In this document: one piece after another, positions 16,370 through 49,733 of the stretch | How the letters are laid out: every line of letters begins with the position of its first letter | Position numbering within the stretch: position 1 is the stretch's first letter | Assembly: GCA_018648805.1 (NCBI GenBank) | Contig: JABGQM010000013.1 | Coordinates: 20,067 to 84,066, forward strand | Length of the DNA: 64,000 nt | Direction of reading: 5' to 3' | Source of the DNA: Verrucomicrobiota bacterium | Lineage (GTDB): Bacteria; Verrucomicrobiota; Kiritimatiellia; UBA8416; JABMPJ01 | The notes under the pieces: generated by a model | Database searches by the model: none | Told to the model about the DNA's origin: nothing | What the model saw: only the letters and a program-made list of their open reading frames with translations | Position numbers and translations under genes: made by a program

Positions 16370-17274
16370 TCCAGCGTGTAGCTGTGCCCTGGCTCCTTGT
16401 TATGCTGCTTCAGAAGCGGCGAATAGGCCGCAACACGGATCTTCCCGGCAACCGGGTCGAAACGCATGGTCTGCAGCCAGCCGTTCCCGCCATTGGGAGC
16501 CCCCTGGTAGTCGCAGAGAATCTCAAGAACGTCGCCACCGCTGTCGTTGACAGAGACTCCGTGGGCAACCGCGGGCACATGGCCGCCGACCACGATCCGG
16601 ATATTGGGGCTCATGCGCACAAGTTCATCCCAGATCAGGCGGCCGCGCGGGCCCTTCTTGTCGCCCCTCAGGAGATAGGCGTGGGTGGCCAGAATGATCG
16701 TCTCTTTCGGATGATCGGCGGCAGTCTTCCGCGCCCAGGCCAGCTCCGACTCCGTCGGGTCGTAGGTCAGAGAGAGGACCATCCATTGCCGTCCACCCGC
16801 GGAAAAGCGGCAGGTGTTGACCCCGTTATTGGTGGGGCTGACCGATCCCCCGTACCACGGCTGCGCGGCAAAGCGGGCGGGGCCGAAATACGTGTTGTAG
16901 AGGGTCAGCTTTCCGGGGGCCCCGTCATGGTTGCCGGGCAGCACGCTGTAGGGCACATGACCGTCGAGCACCTTGTGGGCCCGATCGGCGGCCTCCCATT
17001 CGGACTTGTTCTGCGGGGTCTGAACAATATCGCCGAGGTGTATCACAAAGGTCGTATTCAGTTCCGCGGCCGTCTCCTTGATCCAGCGGGTCTGCGCCAC
17101 GTAGGTCTCAGGGAACTTCTGACTGTAGAACTGCGTATCCGGGAGCAGAACGATGGTGAATGGATTGTCAATCCGTGGGGTGCTGCGCGGCACCGTCGCG
17201 CAACTGGTCAGCAGCAGCGCCACAACCAGCATCAGGACATTACCAACCACTAGTCTCACCCTCTTCATAACCAT
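16354..17274 (-). CDS. Calcineurin-like metallophosphoesterase lipoprotein
   Basis: HLGDIVQ and LPGNHD phosphoesterase motifs. N-terminal lipoprotein signal MVMKRVRLVVGNVLMLVVALLLTSC. Its ATG overlaps the stop of the upstream gene (TGATG). Confidence 0.7.
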   Translation of the reverse strand: MVMKRVRLVVGNVLMLVVALLLTSCATVPRSTPRIDNPFTIVLLPDTQFYSQKFPETYVAQTRWIKETAAELNTTFVIHLGDIVQTPQNKSEWEAADRAHKVLDGHVPYSVLPGNHDGAPGKLTLYNTYFGPARFAAQPWYGGSVSPTNNGVNTCRFSAGGRQWMVLSLTYDPTESELAWARKTAADHPKETIILATHAYLLRGDKKGPRGRLIWDELVRMSPNIRIVVGGHVPAVAHGVSVNDSGGDVLEILCDYQGAPNGGNGWLQTMRFDPVAGKIRVAAYSPLLKQHNKEPGHSYTLDWPPQ

Positions 17275-20153
17275 CACCTCTCCTCGTGTGCCAAACGCCA
17301 TGCATTCAACTGCTCATGAAACTGCTTGTAGATACTCAAGTGCTCCTCGCGTGCGGGCTGCTGGGAGCGCCGCCGCGTTTGCGCCGCCTCATCCTTGCGA
17401 CCCAGCGCCTCCAGAATGATCGCCTTGATCGCCCATAGCTCGGTCAGAATGTCATCCGGCTCCTTCACGGTCACCGTTGCCGCGTCCTTGCGCCAATGCT
17501 CGATCCCCTTACTCCGCCGGCCCCGATAGTAGCGCAATTTACGCGCATCAATCGCCTTATCGATGCACTCCAGCGCCCCGTCCCAATCCTTGAGTGCCAT
17601 CTGGGCCAGCGCGCCACCATGATGCCGCGGGGCACGCCACCCGTAACGCTCCGGTAGAAATGGAAGGAAGGGACCCGCAAAGGTGCGTGCCGCCAGCGTG
17701 TAGTCGCCCGCCGTCAACGCACGGTACGCCAGCTGGATATCACTGATCTCGATGTGGACCTTCATGGCCAGCGTAACGGCAAAGGGGAAACCGAACTCCG
17801 ACTTGTAGACGAGCCCTGAGCAATGCCAGGCAACGGTTCCGTCGCGGCGCAACAGGAAGACATTGGGCAGGCGATCGGCCGACAGAATCCCCAACTGCTG
17901 CACCATCGGATTATCCAACCCACCGGGAACCATGGCGGCAGCGCAGCTCCATTCGTTCGTCTTCATCAGCCGCTCGACCCGCTGCGCATCGTCGGTCAAA
18001 AAGGCCAGGCGTACATCGACCTCTTTGTTCACATGCTGATCGGCCAAGCTCAATGCACTGCTCACCACGCCCCTGACGTAATCACGCAATTGAAAAACAT
18101 ATTTGGGCACGAAGCCCTTCTTGCCCTGCACCACCGCGAAATCTGCTTCAGACTCGGGGGGCGGCTCGATAAAGAGCAGCAGCGTCAGACGGCCCTCTGT
18201 GTCATCCGGCAGGGAGAGAGCGCTGCCATCGAGATTCTTGAGTTCACACTTCGGGAAGGGCACCGCGTTGGTATTCCATCCGTGATTGACGATATGAGCA
18301 CGGCTCCATCCCATGCGGTCGCCACGCGTGCTGTTGGGCTTCAGCAGGTAGAAACGGTGGTAGCGGTTGAGGAGAAATGAGCGCACGCCCCACATGGGAT
18401 GTGCGCTGTCGGCCAGCAATGCCAGCGTCCGGGTGCGGTACTCCTCATGCAGCTCCCGGCTATTGGCTTCCAGCGCCAGAATCGCTGCGGCGGCCAGTGC
18501 CGATGCCGGTGCCGCATCGCCCCCCGATGCCTCGACCAGCTGTCGGATTTCTCGTTCGGCATGGGGACCTTCTTCGCGAAAAGAAGCCTTGGCCAGACAG
18601 AAGCGCGCCACCACGCCCTCGGCCGGCGATACCTTTGCCGCCAACACGGTGTTCGCCTCCTGCACCGCCTGCTCCAAATGCGCGGGGTCACAAGCCAGAT
18701 TCCACATTCCCAGCAGGGCAATGATTCGCCGGTTGCGTACCAGCCACAGTTCCGGCGCGTTGGCGTGTTGCTTGATGGCCTCACCGCACAGCTTCTCAGC
18801 CCTCTGGTAGTTCGCCATCGCCTCTTCGCGCGTCAGTCTGTAACGGAACGGTGGCGGAGTGAAGCACGCTTGGATAGCGCGGAGTATCTCATTGGGCTCC
18901 GCTCCTGCTGGCCTCGCGCTCGGCGAGCGCGGGCTACTTTGGAGCCCGCTTCCCTGTAGCCCGCTCTCGCCGAGAGCGAGGCTCTCTGAGGGCGCATTCG
19001 GTGCCACCGGATCGGCCACCAGGAAATCCCCAATAAACAACGACTGCAGCTGAGCCAAGTAGCGGTCGTGCGACAGGCGTGCCTCGCTGATCTTGAAAAT
19101 TCCGCCGTCAAGACTCATCACCCCCACGTTCGAATCCGGGTTGACCCCGAACGGATTCAGCACCGTGTAGCCGAAGGCGTTGACGAACAGGGCGTTGGGG
19201 TTGGCACCGCCATAGGCTTGATAGGCCACATTCCGTTCACCCTCCGGCAAATGCATGGCGTGCCAGTCCAGTCCCATCTTGCGCAGCACCTTTTCGCCGG
19301 CATCAGGTAGCTCATCGAGATTGAAGCTGTAGACTTCAAAGGCCCCCGGGAAGAGCTCCTGCTGCTCTTTAACCTGCTGCATGAAGCGCTCAATACCAGA
19401 GCTCTCCTGCGACCAGTAGACCAGCAGGCACTGATGCCCGATGCGGTCACCCGGAATGTAGAGGGTGGTGCCATCGGAACGCTGATAGCTCCCTTTGCAT
19501 TTCACGGCCAGCGACTTCAGACTCAGCACGTTACGGCGAAATGCGATGACTTCAGGATTGCCTGCGCAGCGCTCGTCCATGGATCGCTCTATGAAGTAAT
19601 CCAACTCGCCTGAGTCAAGGTCCTTCGCGATCGTCGCCCCGATCATCAGGCTCTTGGGCTCCGCCGACGTGCCGCGGTAGCGTATGATCAATGCTTCCAG
19701 AGCCTCTGCCCGCTCCTCAAGCGAGGCGTCACTATTGGACTGATCCCGCTCCGACAGCAGCAGGTCGGCTTCGAGCCTGACGCCTGCCCATTCATCCGGC
19801 GCCTGCATCAACTGAGTGCAAATATCATACAGGACCTCCCGGTTACGGTCGGTTCTCTCCAGCGTCAGCACCACCTTCTGGTTCTGGAGCATCATGCCTA
19901 ACAGCTGAAACCGTTTGGGGTCGTCGGGGTGGCTTTCAAGAAGCTTGTCTCCCCCACGGACCACACGCTTGCAGGCCCGTCGCTGCTCGGCAGAACCCGG
20001 CTTGCCTGCTCTGGCCTTCTGACTCGCCGCTTGCAGGGCGGCCATCTCAGCAGCGGGAACGGGAGCGGCACCGAACGCAGCAGGCAGCAGCGCCAGCAGC
20101 AGCGCCAGCAGACAGGCGCCCCGTATCAAAACATCCATGGCCCGAGTCAGCAT
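17274..20153 (-). CDS. Secreted protein A: N-terminal helical region plus two TlpA/thioredoxin-like domains lacking CxxC (paralog of 22350..25346); carries an in-frame REP element
   Basis: Signal peptide MLTRAMDVLIRGACLLALLLALLPAAFGAAPVPA. TlpA-like fold pattern ELKNLDGSALSLPDDTEGRLTLLLFIEPPPE...LPNVFLLRRDGTVAWHCSG, with IEPPPE in place of WCxxC. 959 aa. Confidence 0.55.
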   Translation of the reverse strand: MLTRAMDVLIRGACLLALLLALLPAAFGAAPVPAAEMAALQAASQKARAGKPGSAEQRRACKRVVRGGDKLLESHPDDPKRFQLLGMMLQNQKVVLTLERTDRNREVLYDICTQLMQAPDEWAGVRLEADLLLSERDQSNSDASLEERAEALEALIIRYRGTSAEPKSLMIGATIAKDLDSGELDYFIERSMDERCAGNPEVIAFRRNVLSLKSLAVKCKGSYQRSDGTTLYIPGDRIGHQCLLVYWSQESSGIERFMQQVKEQQELFPGAFEVYSFNLDELPDAGEKVLRKMGLDWHAMHLPEGERNVAYQAYGGANPNALFVNAFGYTVLNPFGVNPDSNVGVMSLDGGIFKISEARLSHDRYLAQLQSLFIGDFLVADPVAPNAPSESLALGESGLQGSGLQSSPRSPSARPAGAEPNEILRAIQACFTPPPFRYRLTREEAMANYQRAEKLCGEAIKQHANAPELWLVRNRRIIALLGMWNLACDPAHLEQAVQEANTVLAAKVSPAEGVVARFCLAKASFREEGPHAEREIRQLVEASGGDAAPASALAAAAILALEANSRELHEEYRTRTLALLADSAHPMWGVRSFLLNRYHRFYLLKPNSTRGDRMGWSRAHIVNHGWNTNAVPFPKCELKNLDGSALSLPDDTEGRLTLLLFIEPPPESEADFAVVQGKKGFVPKYVFQLRDYVRGVVSSALSLADQHVNKEVDVRLAFLTDDAQRVERLMKTNEWSCAAAMVPGGLDNPMVQQLGILSADRLPNVFLLRRDGTVAWHCSGLVYKSEFGFPFAVTLAMKVHIEISDIQLAYRALTAGDYTLAARTFAGPFLPFLPERYGWRAPRHHGGALAQMALKDWDGALECIDKAIDARKLRYYRGRRSKGIEHWRKDAATVTVKEPDDILTELWAIKAIILEALGRKDEAAQTRRRSQQPAREEHLSIYKQFHEQLNAWRLAHEER
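18910..18982. repeat. REP-like element copy inside the protein A coding frame
   Basis: ggcctcgcgctcggcgagcgcgggctac...gtagcccgctctcgccgagagcgaggc is translated in-frame as ESLALGESGLQGSGLQSSPRSPSARP. Confidence 0.85.
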
Positions 20154-20259: not shown

Positions 20260-22203
20260 CTACTCCACTGGTGTCAGCGTGAAGTCTCTTACGGTGAGGC
20301 CTTTGTTGGGGGCCTTGCAAGTGAACTGGAGTTTGTTCCTGCCGGCTTTCAGATCCATGGTGACCGGCTTGGTGTCCACCCAGTCGCCCATGGAGAGCGG
20401 GATCTCGATCTCATACATGTTGCGGCGGTTGACCCGCATCAGGAAAATGCGGTCTATGGTTACCGACACAATCTGGGCCGAGAAGGCATACTTGCCGGCC
20501 TCGGGCAGCTCCAGCGTGTATGAAAGCAACTCGGGGCGGATGCCCCCCAGGCTGTAGTGCGCTTGAACGAACGAGTCGTCGAAGCTCTTCATGAAGCGGA
20601 TCTTCTCGGTGCTGGACTCCTTTGAACAGGCGGCTACGGGCACCGTGATGACCCCATTGGCATCGGTGGTGATGGTGGTGTCCGCTTCGGTCAGCTCAAT
20701 TTGCGGGACGTCTGGTGCCTCGGGAACCGCATCGGCCTCAGGAGCCCACCCGGTCTTGTCCGACACAGCCGCCTCATTGGACTCGGCAAACTCGGCCCCG
20801 GTCATCGCCTGCTCTTTCAGATCCTCTGCTTCAACGACAGCCAGTTTCTTGTAGAAGGCCAGCGCTTTCCAGAACCCGCCGCCAACGCCAAAGCTCATGC
20901 GATTAACGCCGCCTTCTCCGAACGCATCACCCAACCAGTTGGCGCGGTGCACCTGCCTATACGCATCTGTGATCGGGCGCACTCTGGATTCCAGTTCGAA
21001 GTCGAGACCACACTGTCCGCGGAAGCGATTAAAGGTCCAGTGTGCGCCAAAGACGGTCGTCCACCCGTCCGGTGTCCAGTGGCTCATGGCCGCATGTCCC
21101 GTCTGAGGAGCGGGTCGGGACGGAATACCAAACGCGTGCGTCGCCATCCGGCCCGTAAAGGCACGGGGGCCACAGATCCCGCCCACAAGAAAGTAGCTCT
21201 GCATAGCAGACAGGTTGTGGGCCTCGCGACCGGCAGCACGCGCGCCGCCAGCGTTTGATGTATAGGGAACATCGCTCTTGGTGATGCGACAGTACCGCCA
21301 CCTATAGTCTTCCTTGCGCATGTGGTCGGGGCGATAGTTGCGCATCATCTTGCGCATCCAAACGGCATCCTCAAGCGGGCGAAAGGCAAATATGAAGCGG
21401 CAGTCCCAACCCGTCAATGTGCCAAAGGCCGGGTCCAACTCACCACCCGCGTAGGCCTTCTCATAACTCAGATAGAAGTCCACCATGGCCTCGGCGGGCG
21501 TCTTGCCTTCCGGTACGTGGCTACCATCGGGGTGTTCCAGCGAGCTGGCCAGCGCCCACAGGCGAAAGAAACCACCCTGGGCATCCGAGGCGGCATTCTT
21601 GCTGGCCTTCTGGATGGCCTTGTAGTTGCGTATGGCCTGACCGTATTTGGCCTCATAAGCGCCGCCCAGCTCCATCACATCCACGATCAGAGCGTCGTCG
21701 TTGAGCAGCAGATCCACATACCCCTTCTCTGTTTCGCCCTGCTGAGCGAATTCGGCCATCTGCTTAGCGCCATGTGTCAGCAATGCGCACTTTGCCAACT
21801 TAGCGTGCATCTCATCGCCGCTCAGGAAGGGAGTCGCCTCTTCAAGCAAGGCCTCGACAGCAATGATGGCATTGCTCTGCGCTGCCGCGTATGGGGGATA
21901 GCCTCTACAGAAGGTAACCGGCGCCATCTTGAGGTCGTTCGGATTCGGCGCCTTTGGGATCTTTGCAATCTTGCCATGCGCCTCCACAAAAACGCTCTTC
22001 TTCGCCTCGTCGACAGCTGGAGCCGCGGCGGTGATCTCTTTCTTCAGACCTTCAAGCATCTCGGTGTACGATGCCAGCAGCTTCTCCCCTGCGGGGCTAA
22101 GCGGAGTCTTCTCCCCGCGGGCCTGAGTAAAGGATGCGATCACGCAGAAGGCGAGGCAGGCGGCCATGATGAACGTGCCCAGAGATCCACAACTGCTTCC
22201 CAT
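20260..22203 (-). CDS. Secreted transglutaminase-like (Cys-His-Asp) domain protein C with C-terminal beta-sandwich region (paralog of 35628..37772)
   Basis: The probable start is MGSSCGSLGTFIMAACLAFCVIASFTQA (signal peptide); the track ORF start at 22350 would translate a REP element. Core GGICGPRAFTGRMATHAFGIPSRPAPQTGHAAMSHWTPDGW resembles the transglutaminase-like core G.C..FA...GIP.R...G.H.W...P..GW. Shared blocks NYRPDHMRKEDYRWRY, HWTPDGW. Confidence 0.55.
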   Translation of the reverse strand: MGSSCGSLGTFIMAACLAFCVIASFTQARGEKTPLSPAGEKLLASYTEMLEGLKKEITAAAPAVDEAKKSVFVEAHGKIAKIPKAPNPNDLKMAPVTFCRGYPPYAAAQSNAIIAVEALLEEATPFLSGDEMHAKLAKCALLTHGAKQMAEFAQQGETEKGYVDLLLNDDALIVDVMELGGAYEAKYGQAIRNYKAIQKASKNAASDAQGGFFRLWALASSLEHPDGSHVPEGKTPAEAMVDFYLSYEKAYAGGELDPAFGTLTGWDCRFIFAFRPLEDAVWMRKMMRNYRPDHMRKEDYRWRYCRITKSDVPYTSNAGGARAAGREAHNLSAMQSYFLVGGICGPRAFTGRMATHAFGIPSRPAPQTGHAAMSHWTPDGWTTVFGAHWTFNRFRGQCGLDFELESRVRPITDAYRQVHRANWLGDAFGEGGVNRMSFGVGGGFWKALAFYKKLAVVEAEDLKEQAMTGAEFAESNEAAVSDKTGWAPEADAVPEAPDVPQIELTEADTTITTDANGVITVPVAACSKESSTEKIRFMKSFDDSFVQAHYSLGGIRPELLSYTLELPEAGKYAFSAQIVSVTIDRIFLMRVNRRNMYEIEIPLSMGDWVDTKPVTMDLKAGRNKLQFTCKAPNKGLTVRDFTLTPVE

Positions 22204-22349: not shown

Positions 22350-25346
22350 TTATCTGATCTCCTTTGCAACGATACTCATTCTCTCTTCAAAAACTTCATA
22401 GGGTTCATTGAACCCGCGTATGCGACTGTAGTGGGTCGGATAATGGGTGGGCTTTACAGCGGCCTTGTTGCGAGCGGTTCTCGCTTCGGAACTACGACCC
22501 AGACCATCAAGCGCCTTGGATCGTGTGGTCTGCAGATGCAACATCGTGGTGCACGGATCTTCAGGATCGTGGTTGAACTGCCCTTTCCTGAGATGCCAGG
22601 CGATCGCGCTATCGACATCTTCCAAGGCAGCTTCATACTCCTTCAGGCCCAGATGGGCCAGGGCCCTACCATGGTAGCGCGAGGCCTTCCATTTGCTGGA
22701 GACCTCGTGTTGCGGCAGAATCGGTGTGTCCGCTTCGACCTTCTCGAGATAGGTGCCGGAGAAGAGCTGGACGGCCTTCTCGTACGCCTTTGCCTTCAAG
22801 GCTCGATATCCCGCTTCCGTGTCGACCCCATGGACCTGGGCCTCCCACGCGAGGGCACTGATGTGGGCAAACTTGCCAGACATCTGATAGGGCAGACCAT
22901 TCTTCTTCCAGGCAATGGTGCCATCCCGCCGGACAAGGAAGGAGTTGACATTCCGGTCGGCCGACAGAATCCCCAGCTGATTCACCACCGGGTTGCTCAG
23001 CCCCCCCGGGAGAATCGTGACCAGCCCCGGAAGGCCATACTTGTCGCGAATGGCCTTCACCATAGCGACATCATCGCTCAGGAAAACGGTCACGCACTGA
23101 AGACCGTTGTTATGCCTTCTGGCAAACCCGTAGGCACTGCCGAGAATACCGCCGGGCTGCGGGTTTTTGTTCTTCTTGGTCGCTTCGCCGGGCGGGGCGT
23201 AGATCGCGCGGGCCAGTTCATTGCTGCCATCGGAAGACGGTTCAACGAACAGCAACAGAGTCAACCGCTCACGCTTCGTGTCGGGGAGCGACACCGTCTT
23301 GCCATCCAGGTTCTTCAAATGAATCTCTGGAAGCGGCAGCGTCACCGGGGTGAGACCCACATCAATCATGTGGCGGCGTTCCGTGAATCGGTACTCGCGG
23401 GAGTAGAGATAGAAAATCGGGTTGCCGCGAAAGAGGTAGTACTGGTGGTAGCGGTCGCGCAGGAAGGCAACGAACGGGGCGATATCCTGCGACTGCGCGT
23501 CCGACACCAGAATCATGTCGCGGCACTGATGGTAAAGCTCCCGTGAGTCGGCATGGATAGCGAGGATGACCGCCGCGGCGTGTGTCTTCAGGCCCGCCTT
23601 CTCTCCGCCGCAATCCGCAACAAACCCCTCTACGATCACTTTCGCGCTGGCGTCCCCTTGGCGCAGCGCCGCTTTGGCCAGACAGAAGCGGGCGACCACC
23701 CCTGCCCCATCAGGGAGATCCAAACCAACCGTCGTGCGCGCCTCCTTGACGGCGTCCGGGAAATGCGTGGGCGATCCGCTGATGTTGGCCATCCCCATCA
23801 GTGCAATGATGCGATAGTTGCGCACCCGCCACAGATCCGACGCTTTGGGAGTGGCCGCAATCGCCTTGACGCAGAGGTCGTTCGCCTTCTTGTATTGGGC
23901 CAGTGCTTCGGCCTTGGTTAGGCGGTAGCGCTGTGGGATGGGCAGGAAGCAGGCGCGGATCGCCTTGAGCGTGTCAGCAGGCACGGCTACTGCCGGCCTC
24001 GCGCTCGGCGAGCGCGGGCTACTTTGGAGCCCGCCTCCCTGTAGCCCGCTCTCGCCGAGAGCGAGGCTCTCTGAGGGTGAATCAGCCACGAGCAGATCGC
24101 CGATCAGCAGCGACTGGATCTGGCTCAAGTGCCGGTCGTATTCGCCATAGCTGGCAACGTGACCGGTGGGCACCAGTCGCGGATAGGCAAACTCGTCATA
24201 CACGCTGGAGTGGGCGAATTCCTTGGCCTCTTCTGCGTTCTTGAAGTGGATCGCCATGCTGGGCGGCACAATGGCGTGGCCGAAGTGGTTGACCCGCAGC
24301 GCCGCGGGCATATGCAGCGCATAGGTGCGGAAGGTCTCGCTCTGCACACCGCCCGCCAACCGTAGCACGGTGCACGCTAGCCCAACCGACTTGATAATGG
24401 ACGCCCCAGCATCGGGCAGCTCGTCGACATTGAAGCTGTAGAGCTCCAACAGCCCCGGCGCCTCATCCTGCTGCTGCTTGAGCTGCTTGAGTTTCGCCAG
24501 CGAGGCCTCCGAATCCTTCGACCAGAAGACCGCATAGTAGGCGTGTCCCAGACGGTCATAGGGAAAAGTCATGGTACTGCCATCGAGGCGCTCGAACCTA
24601 CCGGAAAAGACAATATCCATCCGGGTGGCGCCGATCAGCGTACGCCGATAGTTGATGGCAGTCGGGTTTTCGGCGAACCGTTCGCTCAGGTCTGTGACCA
24701 GCTGTTCCTTGAAATCATAGTCACCCAGCTGGGTTGCGAGGCGCACGGCCGCCATCAGAAACTCAAGTTCGCCCGCTGTATCGCGGTAGCGCAGCCGCAT
24801 CTCTGACAGCGCCTTGATGCGCTCCGCCGCATCGGCGTCGCGCGCCGAAAGATCCCGCTCGGAGAGCATCAGCTCGGCATTGAGCCGATAGCTGCTGTAT
24901 GCATCGGGGGCCTCTCTCAACGCCTTGCAGGTCGCAAAGAAGGCCTCCCGGTTGCGTTCGGTGTTCTCCATCTGAAGCAGGCGCTGCTGCGCCTTCAGTT
25001 GGAGCGCGAGCACAGGAAACCGATTGGCCGCATCCGGCTGGGCCCGCACCAGAGCCTGCGCATCGCGGATCACGCCCTTGCACATGCGGCGCTTGGTGGA
25101 GGACGAGGCGCGGGAGGTCGCAAGGGCGGCGAGCTCGGCCTGGAGTGGGTCGAGGGACGCTTCGGGGATGAGCGCGGGCGATTGTGCCGCTGCCGGCAGC
25201 ACAGCAAGCATTAGCGAGAAGCCCAGGAGGAGAGAGCCGAGAGCTCTCGATAGAGCGTTGATTGCTGTCGATTGCTGCCGACTGCTGCCGACAGCTGTCG
25301 ATTCTAGACTCTCCCCATTCGGAAATCGACAATCGGAAATCGGCAT
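22350..25346 (-). CDS. Secreted protein B: paralog of protein A (double Cys-less TlpA-like domains), with an in-frame REP element and a 10-bp tandem repeat in its 5' coding end
   Basis: Collinear similarity to A, for example RLTLLLFVEPSSDG and NVNSFLVRRDGTIAWKKNGL. The same REP-encoded block ESLALGESGLQGGGLQSSPRSPSARP sits at the same relative position. The ATG is coupled 5 nt after the upstream gene stop with an AGGTAGAGAA RBS. Confidence 0.55.
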   Translation of the reverse strand: MPISDCRFPNGESLESTAVGSSRQQSTAINALSRALGSLLLGFSLMLAVLPAAAQSPALIPEASLDPLQAELAALATSRASSSTKRRMCKGVIRDAQALVRAQPDAANRFPVLALQLKAQQRLLQMENTERNREAFFATCKALREAPDAYSSYRLNAELMLSERDLSARDADAAERIKALSEMRLRYRDTAGELEFLMAAVRLATQLGDYDFKEQLVTDLSERFAENPTAINYRRTLIGATRMDIVFSGRFERLDGSTMTFPYDRLGHAYYAVFWSKDSEASLAKLKQLKQQQDEAPGLLELYSFNVDELPDAGASIIKSVGLACTVLRLAGGVQSETFRTYALHMPAALRVNHFGHAIVPPSMAIHFKNAEEAKEFAHSSVYDEFAYPRLVPTGHVASYGEYDRHLSQIQSLLIGDLLVADSPSESLALGESGLQGGGLQSSPRSPSARPAVAVPADTLKAIRACFLPIPQRYRLTKAEALAQYKKANDLCVKAIAATPKASDLWRVRNYRIIALMGMANISGSPTHFPDAVKEARTTVGLDLPDGAGVVARFCLAKAALRQGDASAKVIVEGFVADCGGEKAGLKTHAAAVILAIHADSRELYHQCRDMILVSDAQSQDIAPFVAFLRDRYHQYYLFRGNPIFYLYSREYRFTERRHMIDVGLTPVTLPLPEIHLKNLDGKTVSLPDTKRERLTLLLFVEPSSDGSNELARAIYAPPGEATKKNKNPQPGGILGSAYGFARRHNNGLQCVTVFLSDDVAMVKAIRDKYGLPGLVTILPGGLSNPVVNQLGILSADRNVNSFLVRRDGTIAWKKNGLPYQMSGKFAHISALAWEAQVHGVDTEAGYRALKAKAYEKAVQLFSGTYLEKVEADTPILPQHEVSSKWKASRYHGRALAHLGLKEYEAALEDVDSAIAWHLRKGQFNHDPEDPCTTMLHLQTTRSKALDGLGRSSEARTARNKAAVKPTHYPTHYSRIRGFNEPYEVFEERMSIVAKEIR
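23995..24067. repeat. REP-like element copy inside the protein B coding frame
   Basis: ggcctcgcgctcggcgagcgcgggctactttggagcccgcctccctgtagcccgctctcgccgagagcgaggc. Confidence 0.85.
25258..25303. repeat. Imperfect 10-bp tandem repeat (GATTGCTGYC x4) within codons 14-29 of protein B, followed by 2x CGGAAATCG
   Basis: gattgctgtc gattgctgcc gactgctgcc gacagctgtc. The unit length is not a multiple of 3. The same unit recurs at 39111..39142. Confidence 0.7.
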
Positions 25347-33398: not shown

Positions 33399-35570
33399 CT
33401 ACGCCTCCAATCGGGTTGATGAAGCTGCCGATTGGCGCGTTTGTCGCTTGGGCACTCGGCAGGCCAGCAAACTCTCCATCAATAGGATCCCGACACAAAT
33501 CATGGCGCAGAGGTGCCAGAACGAGCTGATGCCGCGCGACTCCTCGAGGTACGCCACAAGCGCCTCTCCGGGCTGGACAAGCTGAATGCCGGTGTTGGCG
33601 AAAACGCGCTGTTGTGCCTCCACCGAAAGCGACGTCACATTCGACTCGCGGGTATCGACGTTGACCGCAATGGGAACCGGGGCCGACTGCAGACTACCGC
33701 GGGCCTTGTAGTAGCCGACCTCTTTGGCATGGCCCAACAGGGCCCGATACTGATTGCGGTGTTCGTGGACCGGCACCGTGATCGACTCCCCGGAGGGCGT
33801 CTCGAAGACAGCCTCGGCCGCATCGGGCTGCCGGACATAGGAGAGACTCAATGAGCTGCCGACAACGCGGGGCTTTTCGAATTCCCGTGCGGTCAGGTAG
33901 GTAACCATCTGCTGCAGCAGCATGGGGAAGATCGGCGTAATCGCCATGGTGTTCCACGTGGGTTCGGCGGTACTGGTGAACATGAAAACCTGACCGCGAC
34001 CCAGCGAGTGCTCCAGCAACAGAGGAGAGCCACTCCCCGCAAGGGTCAAGAGCGTGGTGGCGGCCGGATGCGGGTCAACCCGCAGTCGTTTGAGGAATCG
34101 CGCTTCACTGAGCAGATCCTCGGACAGCGACAGCAGGGATGCGGAGACACTGTGCTCCGGGATTGTCGGGTTGAGCGGGCGCCCTACCCCCAGTGCATCC
34201 GCGGCTGACACCTGCTCTTCGATGACCGCAGGCAGCAGGGGCGAGCCCTCCTGCACGGAACGCTCATTCCAGGCCTCGCTCTTGGTGCTCTCCCCGGGGA
34301 ACCAGATGAGGCCATTGCCTTCACGAACAAAGGCATCGAAGCGCTTGGTTTGATCCTCGGTGATCGTAGGAACGTCAGCCAGAATCACCACATCGAATGC
34401 CGACAGATCCTGTGCCGGCAGCGCGACCCACGGAATCGAGGTGACGGAAAACTCCTTCTCGGCGACACCACCGTCACGGGCCTTGAGTGCCGAGGCAATG
34501 AAGCCTTTGAACGTGGTGCCCTTCTTGGCGCTACCTTCGACACTGAGGACCGACACCTTGTCGCGAATGATGGCCACGGTGCGGCGTACATTATCAATCT
34601 CCAGGCCATCACCACTGATCTTGGCCGCGATGCGGGCAGGCCCGGGGTTCTGGAAGGGAATGAAGAGGGAGATGGTGGTCGCCGCGCCGGGCGCAATCGT
34701 GGGAATGACCTTGGAGTCGACCGTGATGTTGTTGATCTGCCCGCTAACCTTGACGCCATCGACGGGAACCCGACCATAGTTGTGGACCGTGACGCTGTAG
34801 CGCGCGGTGGAACCTTTGCGCAGCACACCTGACACCAGCTCGAATCCGGTAATGGTCAGATTATCCTGCTCCCCGGTCACCGGCAGCATGAACACACTCG
34901 CGCTCTTGCCAAGGTCGACGAGGGCGTGCCGCAGGCGTTCGGCACCAAGCTCCCAGTCCTGCTTCTGTGCGTCGGAAATCAGATAGATCTCCTTCTGGGG
35001 TGCATCCAGCTCATCGACCAGCTCCTTGAGCTGGCGCGGGATGCTGTCGATGTCCAGTGCTTCCGGTGTAGCCTCCTGCTCCGCCAGAATCGCGGAGAAG
35101 CGCTCTGGATCATAGATCCGGTTGCGCAAGATGACCTTGTGCTCCGTGGCAAGCATCACGAGTGTGACGGGGTTGCCCGGTCCCACCTGCTCCATGACGG
35201 TCTCAACCCTCTGCACAGCACGATCGAAGCGACTCTTGCTGCCATCGCTGTGCCGCATACTGAACGAGGCATCCAGCGCCACAATCACGCCCGTCCGTGC
35301 TTCGCCAACCGCAGCCGCCTTGCCGGTAGCGTCGTTAAGGAGTGGCTGCGCCGCGACCAGCACCAGAAGCAGTACCGCGAGGCAACGCAGGATCAGCAGC
35401 AGGATGTCACGCAGACGAATCTCTTTGGACTTCACCCTGAGGGTGTTGTTGAGGAACTGCATGGCCGCCCACTCAGTAACCTGCGGCTTGTTGTTATTGA
35501 GAATGTGCGCAATAACCGGTAGCGCAATACCCAGAGCCCCAAGCAGAAACAGTGGTGCCATAAAACTCAT
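33399..35570 (-). CDS. BatA-like protein (BatA_N aerotolerance N-terminal domain plus vWA domain, membrane protein)
   Basis: N-terminus MSFMAPLFLLGALGIALPVIAHILNNNKPQVTEWAAMQFL matches the BatA N-terminal pattern. vWA MIDAS block GVIVALDASFSMR. C-terminal TM helix. Confidence 0.65.
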   Translation of the reverse strand: MSFMAPLFLLGALGIALPVIAHILNNNKPQVTEWAAMQFLNNTLRVKSKEIRLRDILLLILRCLAVLLLVLVAAQPLLNDATGKAAAVGEARTGVIVALDASFSMRHSDGSKSRFDRAVQRVETVMEQVGPGNPVTLVMLATEHKVILRNRIYDPERFSAILAEQEATPEALDIDSIPRQLKELVDELDAPQKEIYLISDAQKQDWELGAERLRHALVDLGKSASVFMLPVTGEQDNLTITGFELVSGVLRKGSTARYSVTVHNYGRVPVDGVKVSGQINNITVDSKVIPTIAPGAATTISLFIPFQNPGPARIAAKISGDGLEIDNVRRTVAIIRDKVSVLSVEGSAKKGTTFKGFIASALKARDGGVAEKEFSVTSIPWVALPAQDLSAFDVVILADVPTITEDQTKRFDAFVREGNGLIWFPGESTKSEAWNERSVQEGSPLLPAVIEEQVSAADALGVGRPLNPTIPEHSVSASLLSLSEDLLSEARFLKRLRVDPHPAATTLLTLAGSGSPLLLEHSLGRGQVFMFTSTAEPTWNTMAITPIFPMLLQQMVTYLTAREFEKPRVVGSSLSLSYVRQPDAAEAVFETPSGESITVPVHEHRNQYRALLGHAKEVGYYKARGSLQSAPVPIAVNVDTRESNVTSLSVEAQQRVFANTGIQLVQPGEALVAYLEESRGISSFWHLCAMICVGILLMESLLACRVPKRQTRQSAASSTRLEA

Positions 35571-35627: not shown

Positions 35628-37772
35628 CTATCGGTTGTCAGGGCTCACCGGCTTCAGCGTGAAGTCCTTAATAGTCAGCCCCCTGATGTTCTCGCCGCCG
35701 CGTGAGAATGTCACTGCATTCTTCCCCTTAACAAGCGCTACCTCAACAGGCTCTGACGTGTCCCACATGCCCACGGTTAGAGGCAAAACCATGTCGACCG
35801 GTTCGGTGGCGCCATTAACCGAAATGAGCAGGTGCTGATCACCGGTAGGCGTCACCACTCTCGCGCTGACGGCGTATGTACCTGCCTTCGGCGCTGCAAT
35901 GGTATATTCACACTCCGCCAGTCCTCCACCCGTCCGGCTGTAGTGAAGCTGCTTGCCGCCCAGAACGCTGTCCATGAAGAGTATCTTTCCCGTGCTGCTT
36001 GTCGGGTTTGAGCAGGCCACTGCGGGAACCGTAATGGTCCCATCTTTCGCCACAACGATCGCCTTGTCCTCATCGGTCAGGCCGACCTTTTCGATAAGGA
36101 TCTCTTCCTTAGTCTCGTTCGCTTCGCCAATGTCGGTACCGACGGCGGCGAGTGCCACGGCCTTGGCCTCTTCAATAATCTTGCGCTGACGATAGAGGGA
36201 CACCCCGTACCAGAAACCAGGCTCACCTGAAAGGAGACCGAAGACCTGCTTCTCGCCAAACACATCGCCCATCCACTGAGCGCGCTTGACCTCAACAAAG
36301 GCCTCATCGTTCTCCCGCGCCTGCGTACTCGCCAGAAAGTCACGGTCTTTGGTATAGCGTCCCTTGGTCGTACCCGCACCCCAACCGCCGCCCAGGCAGA
36401 CCACCCAGCCGTCTGGCGTCCAGTGCGTCAAAGCGGCATGGCCCGGCTGCGGGCGCGCCGTCGTCGGCACGCCAAAACTGCGCAGGATGAAACGACCAAA
36501 GAACGCGCGGCGTCCGCATACCCCGCCGTTCATAAGGATGTTCTGGAAGAACTGCAGTTCAGGTTTATCAAACTTATTGAACTGCGACCCATACCGGATA
36601 TCCGTTCTGACCGCCGCCACATAGCGCCACCGATAGTCGGGCGTTGAGATGTGATCAGGCCGATAGTTGTGGAGCATCTCACGCCCCCAGGCGAGAATCT
36701 CATCGGGTTCCTCTCCGTCCACCGTCATGCGATAGTCCCAAACGCTATGCGCCTTGAACCCAGGATCCAGCTCATCGGCCAGATACGCCTTCTCGAAATG
36801 CATATAGCGCTTCAGAGGGTCCACATACTTCGGTGCATCGGTGTCGCCAACCGCGCTTCTCTGTCCACGCGGCGTCGCATGCTCCAGGCTCACAGCCAGC
36901 GCTAGACGCTGTAGCTCGCCGTCTTGCGCCTTCTTGCTCGCCTTCTGGATATCCATGTAGATCTTCATCGCCTGACCGTACTTGCCGTTTGCTTCGCCAT
37001 CAGCAATGGCCATCTGCTTCATCAGGTCAGCGTCCGACAGGAGCGTCTTGACCAGCTTCGCCTGCTTCTTGCCCTGCTGAGAAAATTCAGCCAAACCGCG
37101 CGGCGTGGCCTCGGACATAACCACATACTTCGCAAGCTTCGCATCCAACCTGTCGCTGCTAAGGGCATCCTCGAGACCGAGATCCTTGATCGCCTTCATC
37201 GTCGCCGCCTGCGCCTTTGCCAGCGCTTCCTTGGCGTCCTCCAGATCTTTGATCAACTTCGGCTCTTCCTGCTTTGCGGCGTCATAGACCGCCTGCCGCT
37301 CCTTGAGGGCTGCGAGACCGTCCTCCTTGTTCTTCTGCCAGTTGGCCAGCTCTTGCTTCGCCGCGTCTCGTTCGGCATCTGTGGTCGCGTTCTTGAGCTT
37401 TTCGGTAGAGGAAACGATGCCCTTTTCGGCTCCGCCGATCCACTTGCCCTTTGCATGGTTCACTGAACCCGCTGCTCTACCGATCTTGCCAAGCGCCTTC
37501 TGCTTGGTGTTTCGATCCGTTTCTGCTGTCTTCTCAAAGGCGCGGGCCTCGAGACAGGCGCTCTTCTTCTGCGCGTCCACGGTCGGTATGGCCTTCTGAA
37601 GCTCGGCCTGCAGGGCCTTGAGCTGGCCGGAATACTGCGCTTCAAGTTTCTGCCCGGCCTCCGTGAGCGGGACCACCGGTGGCGCTGCTCTTCTGGCCGC
37701 AAGCGCGCCGTCGGTGCACATGACCATCGCAACAACCAGACATACAGTACGAATCACAGTTCTTCCTGACAT
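35628..37772 (-). CDS. Secreted transglutaminase-like (Cys-His-Asp) domain protein D with a coiled-coil N-terminal region and a C-terminal beta-sandwich (paralog of C)
   Basis: Start MSGRTVIRTVCLVVAMVMC, preceded by an AAAGGGAGAGAG RBS. Core NGGVCGRRAFFGRFILRSFGVPTTARPQPGHAALTHWTPDGW. Shared blocks NYRPDHISTPDYRWRY. Confidence 0.55.
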   Translation of the reverse strand: MSGRTVIRTVCLVVAMVMCTDGALAARRAAPPVVPLTEAGQKLEAQYSGQLKALQAELQKAIPTVDAQKKSACLEARAFEKTAETDRNTKQKALGKIGRAAGSVNHAKGKWIGGAEKGIVSSTEKLKNATTDAERDAAKQELANWQKNKEDGLAALKERQAVYDAAKQEEPKLIKDLEDAKEALAKAQAATMKAIKDLGLEDALSSDRLDAKLAKYVVMSEATPRGLAEFSQQGKKQAKLVKTLLSDADLMKQMAIADGEANGKYGQAMKIYMDIQKASKKAQDGELQRLALAVSLEHATPRGQRSAVGDTDAPKYVDPLKRYMHFEKAYLADELDPGFKAHSVWDYRMTVDGEEPDEILAWGREMLHNYRPDHISTPDYRWRYVAAVRTDIRYGSQFNKFDKPELQFFQNILMNGGVCGRRAFFGRFILRSFGVPTTARPQPGHAALTHWTPDGWVVCLGGGWGAGTTKGRYTKDRDFLASTQARENDEAFVEVKRAQWMGDVFGEKQVFGLLSGEPGFWYGVSLYRQRKIIEEAKAVALAAVGTDIGEANETKEEILIEKVGLTDEDKAIVVAKDGTITVPAVACSNPTSSTGKILFMDSVLGGKQLHYSRTGGGLAECEYTIAAPKAGTYAVSARVVTPTGDQHLLISVNGATEPVDMVLPLTVGMWDTSEPVEVALVKGKNAVTFSRGGENIRGLTIKDFTLKPVSPDNR

Positions 37773-37903
37773 AATACTCTCTCCCTTTATGATGCTTCCG
37801 GGTTTCCCGGGTGTTCTTCTGTTCGCCTTCATGCTTACCTGTTCCCAACTGAATCGGTTCTTGTCTGCTTGTGGAGGAAGGTCTGTCGGTTAAGTGTATC
37901 CGA

Positions 37904-38049
37904 GTTCACGACAAAGTTCTCGAAGCAGTTTTCCCGATTCAGTTCACGACAAAGTTCACGCAACAGATGAGGCGAAGACAGGAACTACCCCGTAAACATT
38001 GTCGTGAACTATCCCGGAACTAACTATTCCGTGAACATTGTCGTCAACT
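37904..38049. promoter_or_regulatory. Array of four copies of a 16-20-bp motif AGTTCACGACAA(A/T)GTT (two direct, two inverted) in the DUF58 / protein D intergenic region
   Basis: 37904-37919 agttcacgacaaagtt; 37941-37960 agttcacgacaaagttcacg; 37995-38010 aacattgtcgtgaact (reverse complement of the motif); 38030-38049 cgtgaacattgtcgtcaact (reverse complement of copy 2, 17/20). About 170 nt upstream of the D start. Confidence 0.6.
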
Positions 38050-38131
38050 ACTTCGAATCCTCTCTCCCTTTGTTCTCCATGCCCCATACCACATGTAGGG
38101 GCCCTTGAATAAGTCCGCCGACCAAACTAAC

Positions 38132-39106
38132 TTATGTCCGTGCGCCTACGGCGGCGCCGGTTAGTGAGGCGGACCGCTCGGCAAAGAATTCATTCAGCAC
38201 CTCATCAACCGGGCGCGAGATATCAACGGTCTTGTAATCGATGTTGGCCCCGATGCAGCCCGACCGCAGCCTCTCAAGATAGGTCTTCAGATTGGTCATA
38301 TAGTCATCGCGGATGCGCTCGGGCTGGGTCGTCAGCGGCATTTCCTGCTCGAGTCCCTCGAAACGCCAGGTGCCCTTGAACGGGAATTCCAGCTCATGGG
38401 GGTCGAGCGTATGGAGTACCATCACGTTGTGACCGTCGAAGCGAAGATGGTCGAGCCCAGCCAGAACATCTTCCGGATCGGCGAGTAGATCGGAGATGAG
38501 CACCACAAAAGAGCGGCGCTTCATCATCAGGGCAATGTCATGCAGCTGTTTGGCGATGGTGGTCTTGGGCGTCGGCTTGATGTCGCGAAGCAGTCGGTCG
38601 ATCTCGACAATGATCCCCTTTGCCGAACGCGGCGGCATATAGGCGCGCACTTCCGAATCGAAGATGGAAAGCCCCACCGAATCGCGCTGTTTGAGCACCA
38701 GATAGGCCAACGAGGCCGCCAGGTACTTGGTGTATTCCAGCTTGTTGACCTTGCCGGATCCATAGCTCATCGAGGCACTGGCATCCACCAGGATATGGCA
38801 GTCGAAGTTGGTCTCGGCCTCGTAGAGCTTGGTGTAATAGCGGTCGGTGCGGCCATACACGCGCCAGTCGATGTCGCGAATCGGGTCGCCCGGCGCATAT
38901 TGCCGGTGATGCGCAAACTCGGTGCTGAAGCCGCGCAGCGGACTGCGATGGCTCCCCACGCGCAATCCTTCCACCACTTCGCGGGCGACCAACTCAAGGT
39001 CGCCCAGTTTCTGCAGCAGCTCCGGGTCGAGGTAGTTGATTTGGGTTAAGTGCTCAGACATAGGTTCACCGTCTTCCTCGCGTCGGGTTTCAGATGTCAG
39101 AATCAA
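38132..39106 (-). CDS. DUF58 family protein (vWA-like, MoxR partner)
   Basis: Hallmark DUF58 block SPLRGFSTEFAHHRQYAPGDPIRDIDWRVYGRTDRYYTKLYEAE, then HILVDASASMSYG. Lies immediately downstream of MoxR. Confidence 0.85.
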   Translation of the reverse strand: MILTSETRREEDGEPMSEHLTQINYLDPELLQKLGDLELVAREVVEGLRVGSHRSPLRGFSTEFAHHRQYAPGDPIRDIDWRVYGRTDRYYTKLYEAETNFDCHILVDASASMSYGSGKVNKLEYTKYLAASLAYLVLKQRDSVGLSIFDSEVRAYMPPRSAKGIIVEIDRLLRDIKPTPKTTIAKQLHDIALMMKRRSFVVLISDLLADPEDVLAGLDHLRFDGHNVMVLHTLDPHELEFPFKGTWRFEGLEQEMPLTTQPERIRDDYMTNLKTYLERLRSGCIGANIDYKTVDISRPVDEVLNEFFAERSASLTGAAVGART

Positions 39107-39110
39107 TCGC

Positions 39111-39142
39111 GATCGATTGCTGCCGATTGCTATCGATCTGCT
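39111..39142. repeat. 10-bp tandem repeat CGATTGCTRY x2 (+CGATCTGCT) in the MoxR-DUF58 spacer
   Basis: gatcgattgctgccgattgctatcgatctgct. The unit is shared with 25258..25303. Confidence 0.7.
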
Positions 39143-39151
39143 CTCTCCGCG

Positions 39152-40171
<1,020 letters not shown>

Positions 40172-40228
40172 TCTCTCTCCCTCACGCTTCATGCTATTGC
40201 TGATCACCTATTCGAGTGCCCTGCCTGA

Positions 40229-40459: not shown

Positions 40460-42121
40460 TCACCCTTTCACGCCGCTCATGACTACACCCTGGATGAAGT
40501 ATCGCTGGGCCAGGAAGAAGATGACCAGCACCGGGGCCACCATAATCAGAGACCCGGCCATAAGCAGGGAGAAGCTGCCGCCACTCTGGAGCTGGAAGCT
40601 GAAGAGGCCCAGCGCCAGATTGTAGAGGCGCTGATCGTTGACGTAGATCAGCGGTCCCATGAAGTTGTTCCACGAGCCCATGAACGTGAAGATGGCCACA
40701 GCGGCCAGGGCGGGTCGGACGTTGGGAAGGATGACATTCCAGTAGGTCCTTAGGAAACCGCACCCGTCGATCTTGGCTGCATCCGTGAGGTCCTTGGGAA
40801 TGCCCTTCATCGCCTGCACCAGCAGGAAGACGAAAAACGCATTCCCGAACATGGACGGCACCCACAGCGGAAAGAGGGTGTTGTACCACCCGAGGGACTT
40901 AAAGATGATGAATTGTGGAATCATTGTCACTTGCGCCGGGATCATGAGCGTCGACAGCAGCAGGACGAAGCAGAGCTTTCTGCCCGGCCACTCCATCCGC
41001 GCAAAGGCGTAGGCCACGATCGACGAACTGAGAATCGTCAAGGTGATGTTGGCACAGGCCAGGAATATGCTGACCCAGAGGTAACGGTCGAACGGGACCT
41101 GTTTGAGGACACGCCGGAAGTTCGCGCTGAGCTTGCCCCTCCAGGCGCGCACCGGCCCGCTGCGCACCAGGGTGGCTTCGATCTGCAGTTCATTGGGGGC
41201 GAGGTTATCGACATCGGCCACGGCATGTACAAGCGTCCAGTTCCTCTGCATCGGCTTGCTGTCGTCGGCACTGGGCTCCTGGAAGATCACCTCGGACCAG
41301 CGTGACCCGACGAGCACGAAATCCTCTTCCGCTTCAAAGCGCTTGCCCTTCATGCTGACCGCCACGCGCACCCGGTGGCAGCTCCGGTCGGCCCGGATCG
41401 GGATAGAGATCTGCTTGATCTCTCTCGGGTCGAAGGGCAGCGTGAAGCGGGTGGTCAGCCTGATGGTACCCGAAGGGCCGAACCGGTAGTGCAGATCGCG
41501 TACGGTCTGATCCCCTCCCCCGAAGGGCTCAGCCAGCGTCAGCCCCCCCTCGGTCACGACCCACCGGGACCCGGGCGCGACCTCCACGAAGTCGCGTTTG
41601 CGGAGTATCGGCGAACTGATAGCGGCACGCCGGTAGACCGCATCAAAGACCTTCGCCAGGCGGCCGGGCACGGCAGCGGCTGTCCCGATCTCGGCCATGA
41701 TCCGGTCATCGGCCTCACTCCAGAGCGTGTCGGGTAGCACGCCCAGCAGGTTGGCCCAGAGACCATTCACGAGCGAGGGTATCGCGCCGGCTTGATCAAC
41801 CGGCAGCTCCGCGGCGATATCACTCTGTTCGACCTGCGCACGCAGTGCAGAGCGGATAGCGGGCTGCAGCCGGGCCCAGCCGGGCCCCGCGAGCGCCTCG
41901 GGGCAGGCCATCTCGCCGAAATAGCTACGGTCGACGTAGGGCGATGCGGCGCGCGGCTCGGGGGCCGACGGCAGGATGCGCAGGCGTTCCGGCACCAGCT
42001 CTTCGTCTTCCTTCATGGCCGTGAGCAGCAGCCAGAGGAACGGGATCAGGAAGACAGCACTGCCGATAAACAGGCAGGCATGCAGGGCGAAGCGGGAGCG
42101 TTTTCTGAAGTGCAAGCCCAT
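40460..42121 (-). CDS. Carbohydrate ABC transporter permease (MalG-like) with a ~330-aa periplasmic insertion after TM1
   Basis: EAA-loop region DAAKIDGCGFLRTYWNVILPNVRPAL and a typical C-terminal TM pattern. TM1 FALHACLFIGSAVFLIPFLWLLL, then a long non-membrane segment. Its ATG overlaps the upstream stop (ATGA). Confidence 0.7.
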   Translation of the reverse strand: MGLHFRKRSRFALHACLFIGSAVFLIPFLWLLLTAMKEDEELVPERLRILPSAPEPRAASPYVDRSYFGEMACPEALAGPGWARLQPAIRSALRAQVEQSDIAAELPVDQAGAIPSLVNGLWANLLGVLPDTLWSEADDRIMAEIGTAAAVPGRLAKVFDAVYRRAAISSPILRKRDFVEVAPGSRWVVTEGGLTLAEPFGGGDQTVRDLHYRFGPSGTIRLTTRFTLPFDPREIKQISIPIRADRSCHRVRVAVSMKGKRFEAEEDFVLVGSRWSEVIFQEPSADDSKPMQRNWTLVHAVADVDNLAPNELQIEATLVRSGPVRAWRGKLSANFRRVLKQVPFDRYLWVSIFLACANITLTILSSSIVAYAFARMEWPGRKLCFVLLLSTLMIPAQVTMIPQFIIFKSLGWYNTLFPLWVPSMFGNAFFVFLLVQAMKGIPKDLTDAAKIDGCGFLRTYWNVILPNVRPALAAVAIFTFMGSWNNFMGPLIYVNDQRLYNLALGLFSFQLQSGGSFSLLMAGSLIMVAPVLVIFFLAQRYFIQGVVMSGVKG

Positions 42122-46186: not shown

Positions 46187-46232
46187 CTTGCCCCTCCTGT
46201 TCCTGGCTCCTTGATTCTGCATACACCGCCCC

Positions 46233-49712: not shown

Positions 49713-49733
49713 GTCCTTCGCGCTCGTCCTTGT

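Follow-up and report, generated by a model that had tools for sequence, protein, structure and literature searches.

Paralogous proteins of Verrucomicrobiota with a divergent transglutaminase-like core, a CBM6/CBM35-like module, and predicted export

Two paralogous genes, here called D and C, are located on a 64,000-nucleotide stretch of the genome of a Verrucomicrobiota bacterium (GenBank assembly GCA_018648805.1, contig JABGQM010000013.1), which was analyzed as a whole and is referred to below as the window. Their products are three-part proteins, consisting of a helical N-terminal region, a central domain that is putatively catalytic, and a CBM6/CBM35-type module at the C-terminus, and they are predicted to be exported. 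As judged from structure models, the central domain appears to be a much-reduced and very divergent transglutaminase/papain-type core. The best explanation of the whole, which we regard as reasonably probable in view of sequence, models, and analogy, is that D and C are exported thiol-dependent amidases, esterases, or transamidases that would act on a glycan or glycoconjugate. They represent a new family for which no model exists so far; it belongs to a known superfamily but is unusual in its architecture and has two distinct genomic lifestyles.

Both open reading frames (ORFs), together with the peptides quoted from them in a preliminary description of the window, were found on the minus strand in the ORF listing and its translation. 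The paralogy proposed in that description is borne out by BLASTP (37% identity across 557 amino acids [aa], E 8e-103), and the two proteins have NYRPDH and DYRWRY in common, as had been stated there; Y365, R366, P367, and D368 as well as W377, R378, and Y379 are invariant in an alignment of 66 family members. Residues of D are numbered according to the 709-aa form starting at V26 (window position 37757), as in this alignment. D and C are 100% identical to two proteins of Verrucomicrobia metagenome-assembled genomes (MAGs) at NCBI (HN383_06890 and HN919_21045, respectively), both of which are annotated as "hypothetical protein." Matches to D comprise more than 3,000 and those to C more than 1,400 clusters at 90% identity, all of them unnamed and "hypothetical." A HMMER scan of 1.84 billion representatives with the core domain retrieved 787 proteins, i.e., clusters at 50% identity, at E ≤ 1e-3 and 257 at E ≤ 1e-30. 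The family is almost confined to the Planctomycetes-Verrucomicrobia-Chlamydiae (PVC) group, with members in Planctomycetota, Verrucomicrobiota, Lentisphaerota/Lentisphaeria, and Kiritimatiellia, and species-representative genomes contain at least 541 loci, including those of the cultured strains Rubritalea profundi SAORIC-165 (L015) and Haloferula rosea KCTC 22201 (L068). No description of the D/C family was found in the literature.

The central domain and its Cys-His pair

Sequence libraries were silent with respect to the central domain. Scans of D and C against Pfam and NCBIfam gave no match to the core, and PF01841 (Transglut_core), the Pfam family against which the preliminary description had suggested checking the motif, was not matched at E ≤ 1 by D, by C, or by any of the 66 aligned members. 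Sequence searches of the PDB (phmmer and profile hmmsearch) returned the CBM part only, plus noise such as apolipoprotein and NOB1, and the Foldseek list obtained with full-length D was swamped by CBM6/35 matches. The core was therefore modelled and searched alone. The resulting model (pLDDT 90.2, pTM 0.90) of this domain, along whose sequence the invariant residues of the family are concentrated, retrieved transglutaminase-fold proteins from the PDB at all of the top 27 positions among the 50 Foldseek matches listed; a glycoside hydrolase or lyase was not among these 50, and the few non-transglutaminase matches lower down were designed helical proteins. The best match was 3isr, a transglutaminase-like putative cysteine protease (probability 1.0, E 5e-3), and further ones were TglA, TgpA (probability 0.99), TG2, TG3, FXIIIa, PNGase, XPC/Rad4, protein 4.2, and menin. 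The alignments of the core to 3isr and TgpA span about 110 to 124 columns.

A single planned profile comparison likewise supports the fold. The hhalign template consisted of 120 PF01841-annotated relatives of 3isr and PDB fragments of 3isr and TgpA, and the family core profile aligned to it with a score of 32.9 (P 1.9e-4, 73 columns), compared with scores of at most 22.6, typically about 13, for one reversed and 30 column-shuffled control templates. In this register, "GGVCGRRAF" falls on "AGVCRDFAH," "FGVPTTAR" on "LSIPARYF," "GHAA" on "FHAC" of 3isr, and "DGW" on "GNW." In the model of D, Cys414 opens the helix 414-427, which is followed by short strands (432-434, 443-447, and 450-454) and isolated bridges, and His440 is located just before the β-hairpin of the latter two strands. 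In papain-like cores, the Cys begins a helix, after which an antiparallel sheet of four to five strands is formed (PMC10318531). The modelled layout of D, with a helix-borne Cys and a hairpin-associated His, resembles this arrangement.

The invariant Cys and the His of the "GHAA" motif are, by alignment, the equivalents of the catalytic Cys and His. Cys414 is conserved in 66/66 aligned members and in 137/137 diverse representatives, His440 in 66/66 and 125/128; the counts of representatives, here and below, were taken from a set of 150, some of which are only about 35% identical, and the denominators vary by column. The two residues are spaced 26 residues apart, and G411, G412, C414, G415, and R417 are invariant in the 66-sequence alignment. 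The preliminary description had instead placed the catalytic His in "THW" and the Asp in "DGW." The former residue (H445) is His in 62 and Arg in 46 of 128 representatives, the conserved His being that of "GHAA," and the latter (D449) is acidic in only 58 of 126 (50 Asp and 8 Glu) and belongs to P448-D449, the two-residue turn at which the modelled hairpin reverses, well removed from His440 along that hairpin. Both assignments were rejected on the grounds of conservation and hairpin geometry. The transglutaminase-like core as originally proposed thus stands with respect to the fold, the Cys, and the His, but not with respect to the Asp and the full triad. The canonical Asp would be expected on strand β3, about 16 residues after the His, and the matching site is L455/G456, followed by a small residue (Ala or Gly) at position 457. 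The alignments accordingly present a strictly conserved Cys-His pair without the canonical triad, i.e., either a dyad or a triad whose third residue is located elsewhere. Candidates for a third or oxyanion residue, as judged from conservation, are D331 (137/143), E502 (101/110), D368 of NYRPDH (126/145), and Q405 (100/141). Papain-like enzymes with a complete core are known to work with a Cys-His dyad, and in some papain-like enzymes an acid contributed by a different element holds the His (PMC10318531).

Several observations weigh against an active transglutaminase-like core that works on glycans. At E ≤ 1, no transglutaminase or peptidase family of Pfam or NCBIfam was matched by any of the 66 members; all Foldseek E values of the core exceed 1e-3, with TM scores of 0.2 to 0.27 and about 110 of 369 residues aligned; and the hhalign probability is only 47%. 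The neighborhoods of D-type genes are heterogeneous, with a SASA esterase gene in only about a fifth of them. Furthermore, only about three short strands are modelled in place of the four to five of the canonical core, so that the sheet appears reduced, and G456, a Gly in 121/125 representatives, stands where 3isr has the canonical Asp (the D of "IIFDAT").

The last two observations also speak for the alternative that the core has no catalytic activity and works solely as a module for binding or scaffolding, e.g., with the CBM anchoring a glycan to the MoxR/vWA partners described below. The Foldseek matches include the inactive proteins XPC, protein 4.2, and menin, and the long helical N-terminal region is scaffold-like. 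However, Cys and His persist down to about 35% identity together with the invariant glycines and arginine around the Cys, and it is characteristic of inactive transglutaminase-fold proteins that they lose the Cys and/or the His. Dyad-only enzymes of the papain-like type are well documented (PMC10318531), and fusions to SASA and GH29 catalytic domains, as found in this family, are more typical of enzymes. Because the conservation of Cys and His is so strict, a dead core is considered unlikely.

Architecture, CBM6/CBM35-like module, and proposed mechanism

The full-length AlphaFold2 model of D, which is based on the 66-sequence alignment, is of high confidence (pLDDT 92.5, pTM 0.87). The signal peptides previously noted in both proteins are supported by signal-peptide-like N-termini, as predicted from hydropathy and from AxA-type sites between ALA and A in D and between TQA and R in C. 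A hydrophobic 12-aa window is present at the N-terminus of 63/66 family members, and hydropathy revealed no second transmembrane-like segment in the 66 members besides this signal-like one. The N-terminal region of D was modelled as long helices (33-56, 62-123, 127-163, and 165-191; pLDDT >90). Residues 33-191 are rich in A, K, and E, and this region is about 80 residues longer in D than in C; a K/E-rich N-terminal region, predicted to be a coiled coil and strong in D, had been noted earlier.

The C-terminal domain, previously described only as β-rich, was modelled as a β-sandwich and is specifically CBM6/CBM35-like, which had not been recognized. Foldseek matched D to isolated CBM6/CBM35 modules (2cdp, 5fui, 2w1w, 2vzp, and 1uxz) with E values of 7e-6 to 5e-4 and target TM scores of 0.66 to 0.78. 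In a search of the PDB with the family profile, 8zvk was found at E 3.4e-9 and the CBM35 of CsxA (2vzp) at E 5.8e-4; the alignment to the latter takes in an Asn near the C-terminus. Pfam CBM_6 was matched by 23/66 members with a best E value of 1.9e-4, in all cases below the gathering cut-offs. By sequence and model, the C-terminal domain is thus a distant relative of CBM6/CBM35 rather than a classified member.

In the mechanism that we propose, Cys414 at the N-terminus of its helix would serve as the nucleophile and His440 at the following β-hairpin as the base. The Cys, activated by His440, would attack a carbonyl group to form a thioester acyl-enzyme, which could be resolved by water or by an amine, resulting in an amidase, esterase, or transamidase. 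In this respect, the proteins would resemble transglutaminase-fold enzymes of the periplasm whose targets are polysaccharides or constituents of the envelope. The CBM6/35 module would recognize and supply the glycan or glycoconjugate substrate, and since the substrate would be supplied by this module, the scissile amide or ester group is probably located on the glycan or glycoconjugate itself. The two paralogs represent two subfamilies. C-type proteins would act on the product or target of a Bat-type envelope system, whereas the dispersed D-type proteins would work beside glycan-degrading enzymes, above all SASA esterases.

The Bat-type operon, glycan-degrading company, and features of the window

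The coordinates of D, C, and the surrounding genes are compiled in Table 1. The window contains a nearly unbroken run of minus-strand genes, and in the direction of transcription MoxR (AAA_3) and DUF58 (38132..40207) head a Bat-type operon that continues with D, BatA/vWA, p795, p1517, an SQHop-like gene, p998, C, and p959.

Table 1. Features of D, C, and the Bat-type operon in the window
Feature	Coordinates	Strand	Basis or remark
Gene D	35628..37772	-	714 aa from ATG 37772; ORF listing
D signal-peptide-like segment MSGRTVIRTVCLVVAMVMCTDGALA	37698..37772	-	hydropathy, AxA site; low-pLDDT N-terminal helix
D long-helix N-terminal region, residues 33-191	37185..37661	-	AlphaFold DSSP and composition
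D central domain, mostly helical, residues 192-535	36153..37184	-	core model and clustered invariant residues
D transglutaminase-like core segment, residues 379-454	36396..36623	-	hhalign to PF01841 proteins, Foldseek
D Cys414 codon, catalytic candidate	36516..36518	-	codon verified; aligned to catalytic Cys of 3isr
D His440 codon ("GHAA"), catalytic candidate	36438..36440	-	codon verified; aligned to catalytic His of 3isr
D CBM6/CBM35-like β-sandwich, residues about 570-705	35643..36050	-	Foldseek, profile vs PDB, weak Pfam
Gene C	20260..22203	-	647 aa; start 22203 common to preliminary description and NCBI
C Cys344 codon, equivalent of D Cys414	21172..21174	-	invariant in C-type alignment; codon verified
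C His370 codon, equivalent of D His440	21094..21096	-	invariant in C-type alignment; codon verified
C CBM6/35-like C-terminal domain	20269..20661	-	aligned with D CBM region (BLASTP, family alignments)
MoxR AAA+ ATPase	39152-40207	-	Pfam AAA_3, E 1e-62
DUF58/vWA	38132-39106	-	Pfam DUF58, E 2e-46
GTTCACGACAAWGTTYAC, 18-nt motif, four copies	37904..38048	two per strand	4 matches vs 0.04 expected
BatA/vWA	33399-35570	-	Pfam
p795	31010-33397	-	without Pfam family
p1517, DUF4175-like, 1517 aa	26457-31010	-	Pfam
SQHop-like protein, 369 aa	25351-26460	-	weak squalene-hopene-cyclase/prenyltransferase-like repeats
p998, upstream partner of C-type genes, p959 paralog	22350..25346	-	homolog-upstream counts
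p959, p998 paralog, downstream of C	17274..20153	-	phmmer, E 5e-184 to p998

C-type genes are a conserved distal member of the MoxR-DUF58-BatA-DUF4175 operon of PVC bacteria. A homolog of p959/p998 is present in 55/79 C-type metagenome loci. Of 37 distinct C-type genes for which the upstream sequence extends over 3 kb or more, 24 have such a homolog directly upstream and in the same orientation. The gap between the two genes has a median of about 20 bp, and five of the pairs overlap by 4 nucleotides. The order p1517, SQHop, p959 (one to three copies, often two or three in tandem), and C recurs in many PVC metagenome contigs, and MoxR itself is seldom found inside the 10-kb flanks of C-type loci. 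The gene order BatA/vWA, p795, p1517, and SQHop-like likewise returns upstream of C-type genes in metagenome loci and in the genome locus L077. The proteins p959 and p998, of a conserved partner family, are large and exported-looking, and their sole Pfam match is a weak one to Thioredoxin_8. The idea that they are redox partners maintaining the Cys in its reduced state was considered and rejected, given the weakness of this match and the lack of a visible CxxC motif. Because C-type genes are fixed beside p959/p998 in a Bat-type operon, their products probably work on the product or target of this system.

D-type genes show a different distribution. MoxR, DUF58, and BatA were found near a D-type gene in only 1/80 genome loci (L077), in which D is located between p795 and p1517 and a C-type gene at the end of the operon; in a few other loci (L009, L137, and L141), a D-type gene is found beside C or p959. 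The intergenic gap between DUF58 and D in the window (37833-38131) has a GC content of 48%, compared with 60% for the window, and harbors the GTTCACGACAAWGTTYAC copies, which are about 38 to 39 nucleotides apart inside each pair. The motif was found neither elsewhere in the window nor in 165 related loci. The array looks like an operator, and this suggests that a separate, regulated promoter within the Bat-type operon may serve D. The longest ORF of D (35628-37832, 734 aa, minus strand) reaches up to this gap, and NCBI assigns the start to GTG 37757; ATG 37772 is the most plausible start, because it is preceded, just 5', by the strong Shine-Dalgarno sequence AAGGGAGAG. The longest ORF of C (20260-22350) would begin at an alternative ATG at 22350, which shares nucleotides with the stop codon of the preceding gene (TAATG).

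The closest described operon is that of the MoxR-vWA-TGL theme, in which YebA-like genes encoding transglutaminase-like (TGL) proteins are strictly linked to MoxR and vWA genes in a predicted degradation system (PMC3495828). TgpA of Pseudomonas aeruginosa (PA2873; 6g49/6g4h), whose periplasmic transglutaminase-fold domain is a structural match to the core of D, forms a transcription unit with PA2875-PA2874, the two genes upstream of it (PMC3507681). D and C might accordingly be peptidases of such a system, with the CBM-like domain being merely a protein-binding β-sandwich. In the window, D directly follows MoxR-DUF58, in exactly the place of the TGL gene in the classical triad (PMC3495828), C-type genes are conserved in the same type of operon, and TgpA is among the best structural matches. 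As a general rule, however, the interpretation of D as the TGL of a MoxR-DUF58-TGL triad had to be rejected in view of the single locus among 80, in which D occupies another position; unlike YebA-type TGL genes, D-type genes are usually located outside MoxR-DUF58 operons. TgpA and YebA are polytopic membrane proteins with a Cys-His-Asp triad, whereas D and C, predicted to be soluble and exported, combine a Cys-His pair with a CBM; with a predicted signal peptide but no transmembrane helices, they would not share a compartment with MoxR, which is cytoplasmic. The CBM6/35 sequence signal is real, and some relatives carry additional bona fide modules of this type. Moreover, the operon in question is a much longer Bat-type operon of PVC bacteria with BatA, p795, DUF4175-like, SQHop-like, and p959/p998 genes. 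The peptidase explanation, quite improbable as a whole, is possible for C-type and unlikely for D-type proteins.

The exported glycan-directed thiol enzyme favored here is supported by the genes surrounding D-type loci. A SASA carbohydrate esterase gene is present in 15 of about 71 loci, adjoining the D-type gene on the same strand in 12 of them, and other neighbors are DUF6288/PDZ proteins (10 loci), sulfatases (9 loci), and genes of the GH95, polysaccharide lyase, heparinase-like, and rhamnosidase types. Gene fusions show the same company. The SASA esterase is fused to the family core in two domain orders, C-terminally (P0404) and N-terminally (P0432); other fusions comprise a GH29 alpha-L-fucosidase (P0050) and an FGE-sulfatase domain (P0381), and in P0470 the core is combined with two bona fide CBM6/35 modules. 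Such company, together with the acids D331, D368, and E502 and a wealth of invariant Trp, Tyr, and Arg, as is typical of sugar-binding sites, and with the weakness of the transglutaminase similarity by structure and profile in a mostly helical domain, might also indicate a new glycoside hydrolase or lyase that uses acids, Arg, and aromatics and whose local transglutaminase likeness has no mechanistic meaning. This is considered improbable, because the top of the Foldseek list is taken by transglutaminase-fold proteins, with no glycoside hydrolase or polysaccharide lyase among the 50 matches listed, and because Cys and His, the most strictly kept polar residues, align exactly with the catalytic pair; besides, C-type genes are located in Bat-type operons and not in contexts of carbohydrate-active enzymes.

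Two giant relatives, P0405 (2695 aa) and P0401 (1818 aa), are Ig-repeat proteins of the surface type that contain the core along with Big_5, Gly_rich_2, YDG, MBG_2, Calx-beta, and fn3 domains, which suggests cell-surface display in those lineages. The window itself is a polysaccharide-utilization-type region of a Verrucomicrobia MAG. Around the operon, it contains a SASA esterase gene, a GH106-like rhamnosidase-related gene, and a GH95 fucosidase-type gene (44708-46252, 46596-49841, and 8619-11039). DUF6288 proteins, the second commonest neighbors of D-type genes (e.g., L038:3779-6163), are encoded twice, at 12695-15193, here with an N-terminal PDZ domain, and at 49813-51639. A sugar ABC transporter is also present, and an 814-aa ORF (42121-44565) combines SBP_bac_1 (residues 75-374) and BPD_transp_1 (residues 606-806) in an unusual fusion of substrate-binding protein and permease, adjoined by a second permease gene (40460-42148). 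In addition, a 359-aa ORF (15290-16369) with Y1_Tnp, an IS200-like tyrosine transposase domain, at residues 128-206 adjoins a calcineurin-like phosphoesterase gene (16354-17301).

Related systems and biological meaning

Among PF01841-type proteins, 3isr from Cytophaga hutchinsonii is the best structural match to the core of D, with Cys and His aligned, and it shares with D and C the register G-x-C-x-x-[FA]...[GS]-[IV]-P-x-R...H-A-x...G-W. Unlike PF01841 proteins, D and C are not matched by the PF01841 HMM, and their canonical Asp is replaced by Gly456; unlike in 3isr, the core of D is part of a mostly helical domain of about 340 residues, flanked by the helical N-terminal region and the CBM6/35 tail.

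Two further enzymes are relevant for the proposed substrate. WbmE of Bordetella bronchiseptica, which according to the original work reportedly deamidates uronamide sugars, is a precedent for an exported transglutaminase-fold enzyme with a polysaccharide substrate, although as a functional analogy only and, unlike D and C, without a reported CBM6/35 domain. It is a periplasmic enzyme of the transglutaminase family that modifies the O-antigen after assembly (PMC3507681). PNGase (Png1) combines a transglutaminase-fold Cys-His enzyme with a carbohydrate-binding domain and cleaves a glycan-linked amide, and the architecture of D and C is analogous. Cys and His are about as closely spaced in PNGase, whose core can be aligned to the same consensus, but the Foldseek matches of the D core to PNGase (2f4m/2f4o; E 0.45 to 0.79) are weaker than those to bacterial TGL proteins. 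Furthermore, PNGase has retained the Asp, is cytosolic, and carries a sugar-binding domain other than CBM6/35, whereas D and C lack the Asp and have a CBM6/35-like tail.

Much of the breakdown of complex polysaccharides in the sea and in soil is carried out by PVC bacteria. The placement of D and C in a known superfamily, the definition of Cys414 and His440, and the glycan-binding module together provide a testable enzyme candidate. Given its repeated fusion or proximity to SASA esterases and fucosidases, an unrecognized activity that depends on a Cys could supply a step so far missing from the polysaccharide pathways of these bacteria. The known MoxR-vWA-TGL theme is extended to a new architecture, and a conserved exported component with a transglutaminase fold that is associated with p959/p998 provides an entry to the function of the Bat/MoxR-DUF58-vWA operon. 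Going further, D and C might constitute a new class of carbohydrate-active enzymes, namely, exported Cys-His glycan amidases or deacylases with a transglutaminase fold that are targeted by a CBM, the C-type being the effector of the Bat-type operon; we put this forward tentatively, as a proposal that is rather doubtful in its entirety. If it were true, these proteins could strip amide or ester substituents off sulfated or acetylated algal or envelope polysaccharides or liberate glycans from glycoproteins in the manner of PNGase, and the recruitment of the C-type as an effector would be the first concrete biochemical handle on the MoxR/Bat-type operon of PVC bacteria.

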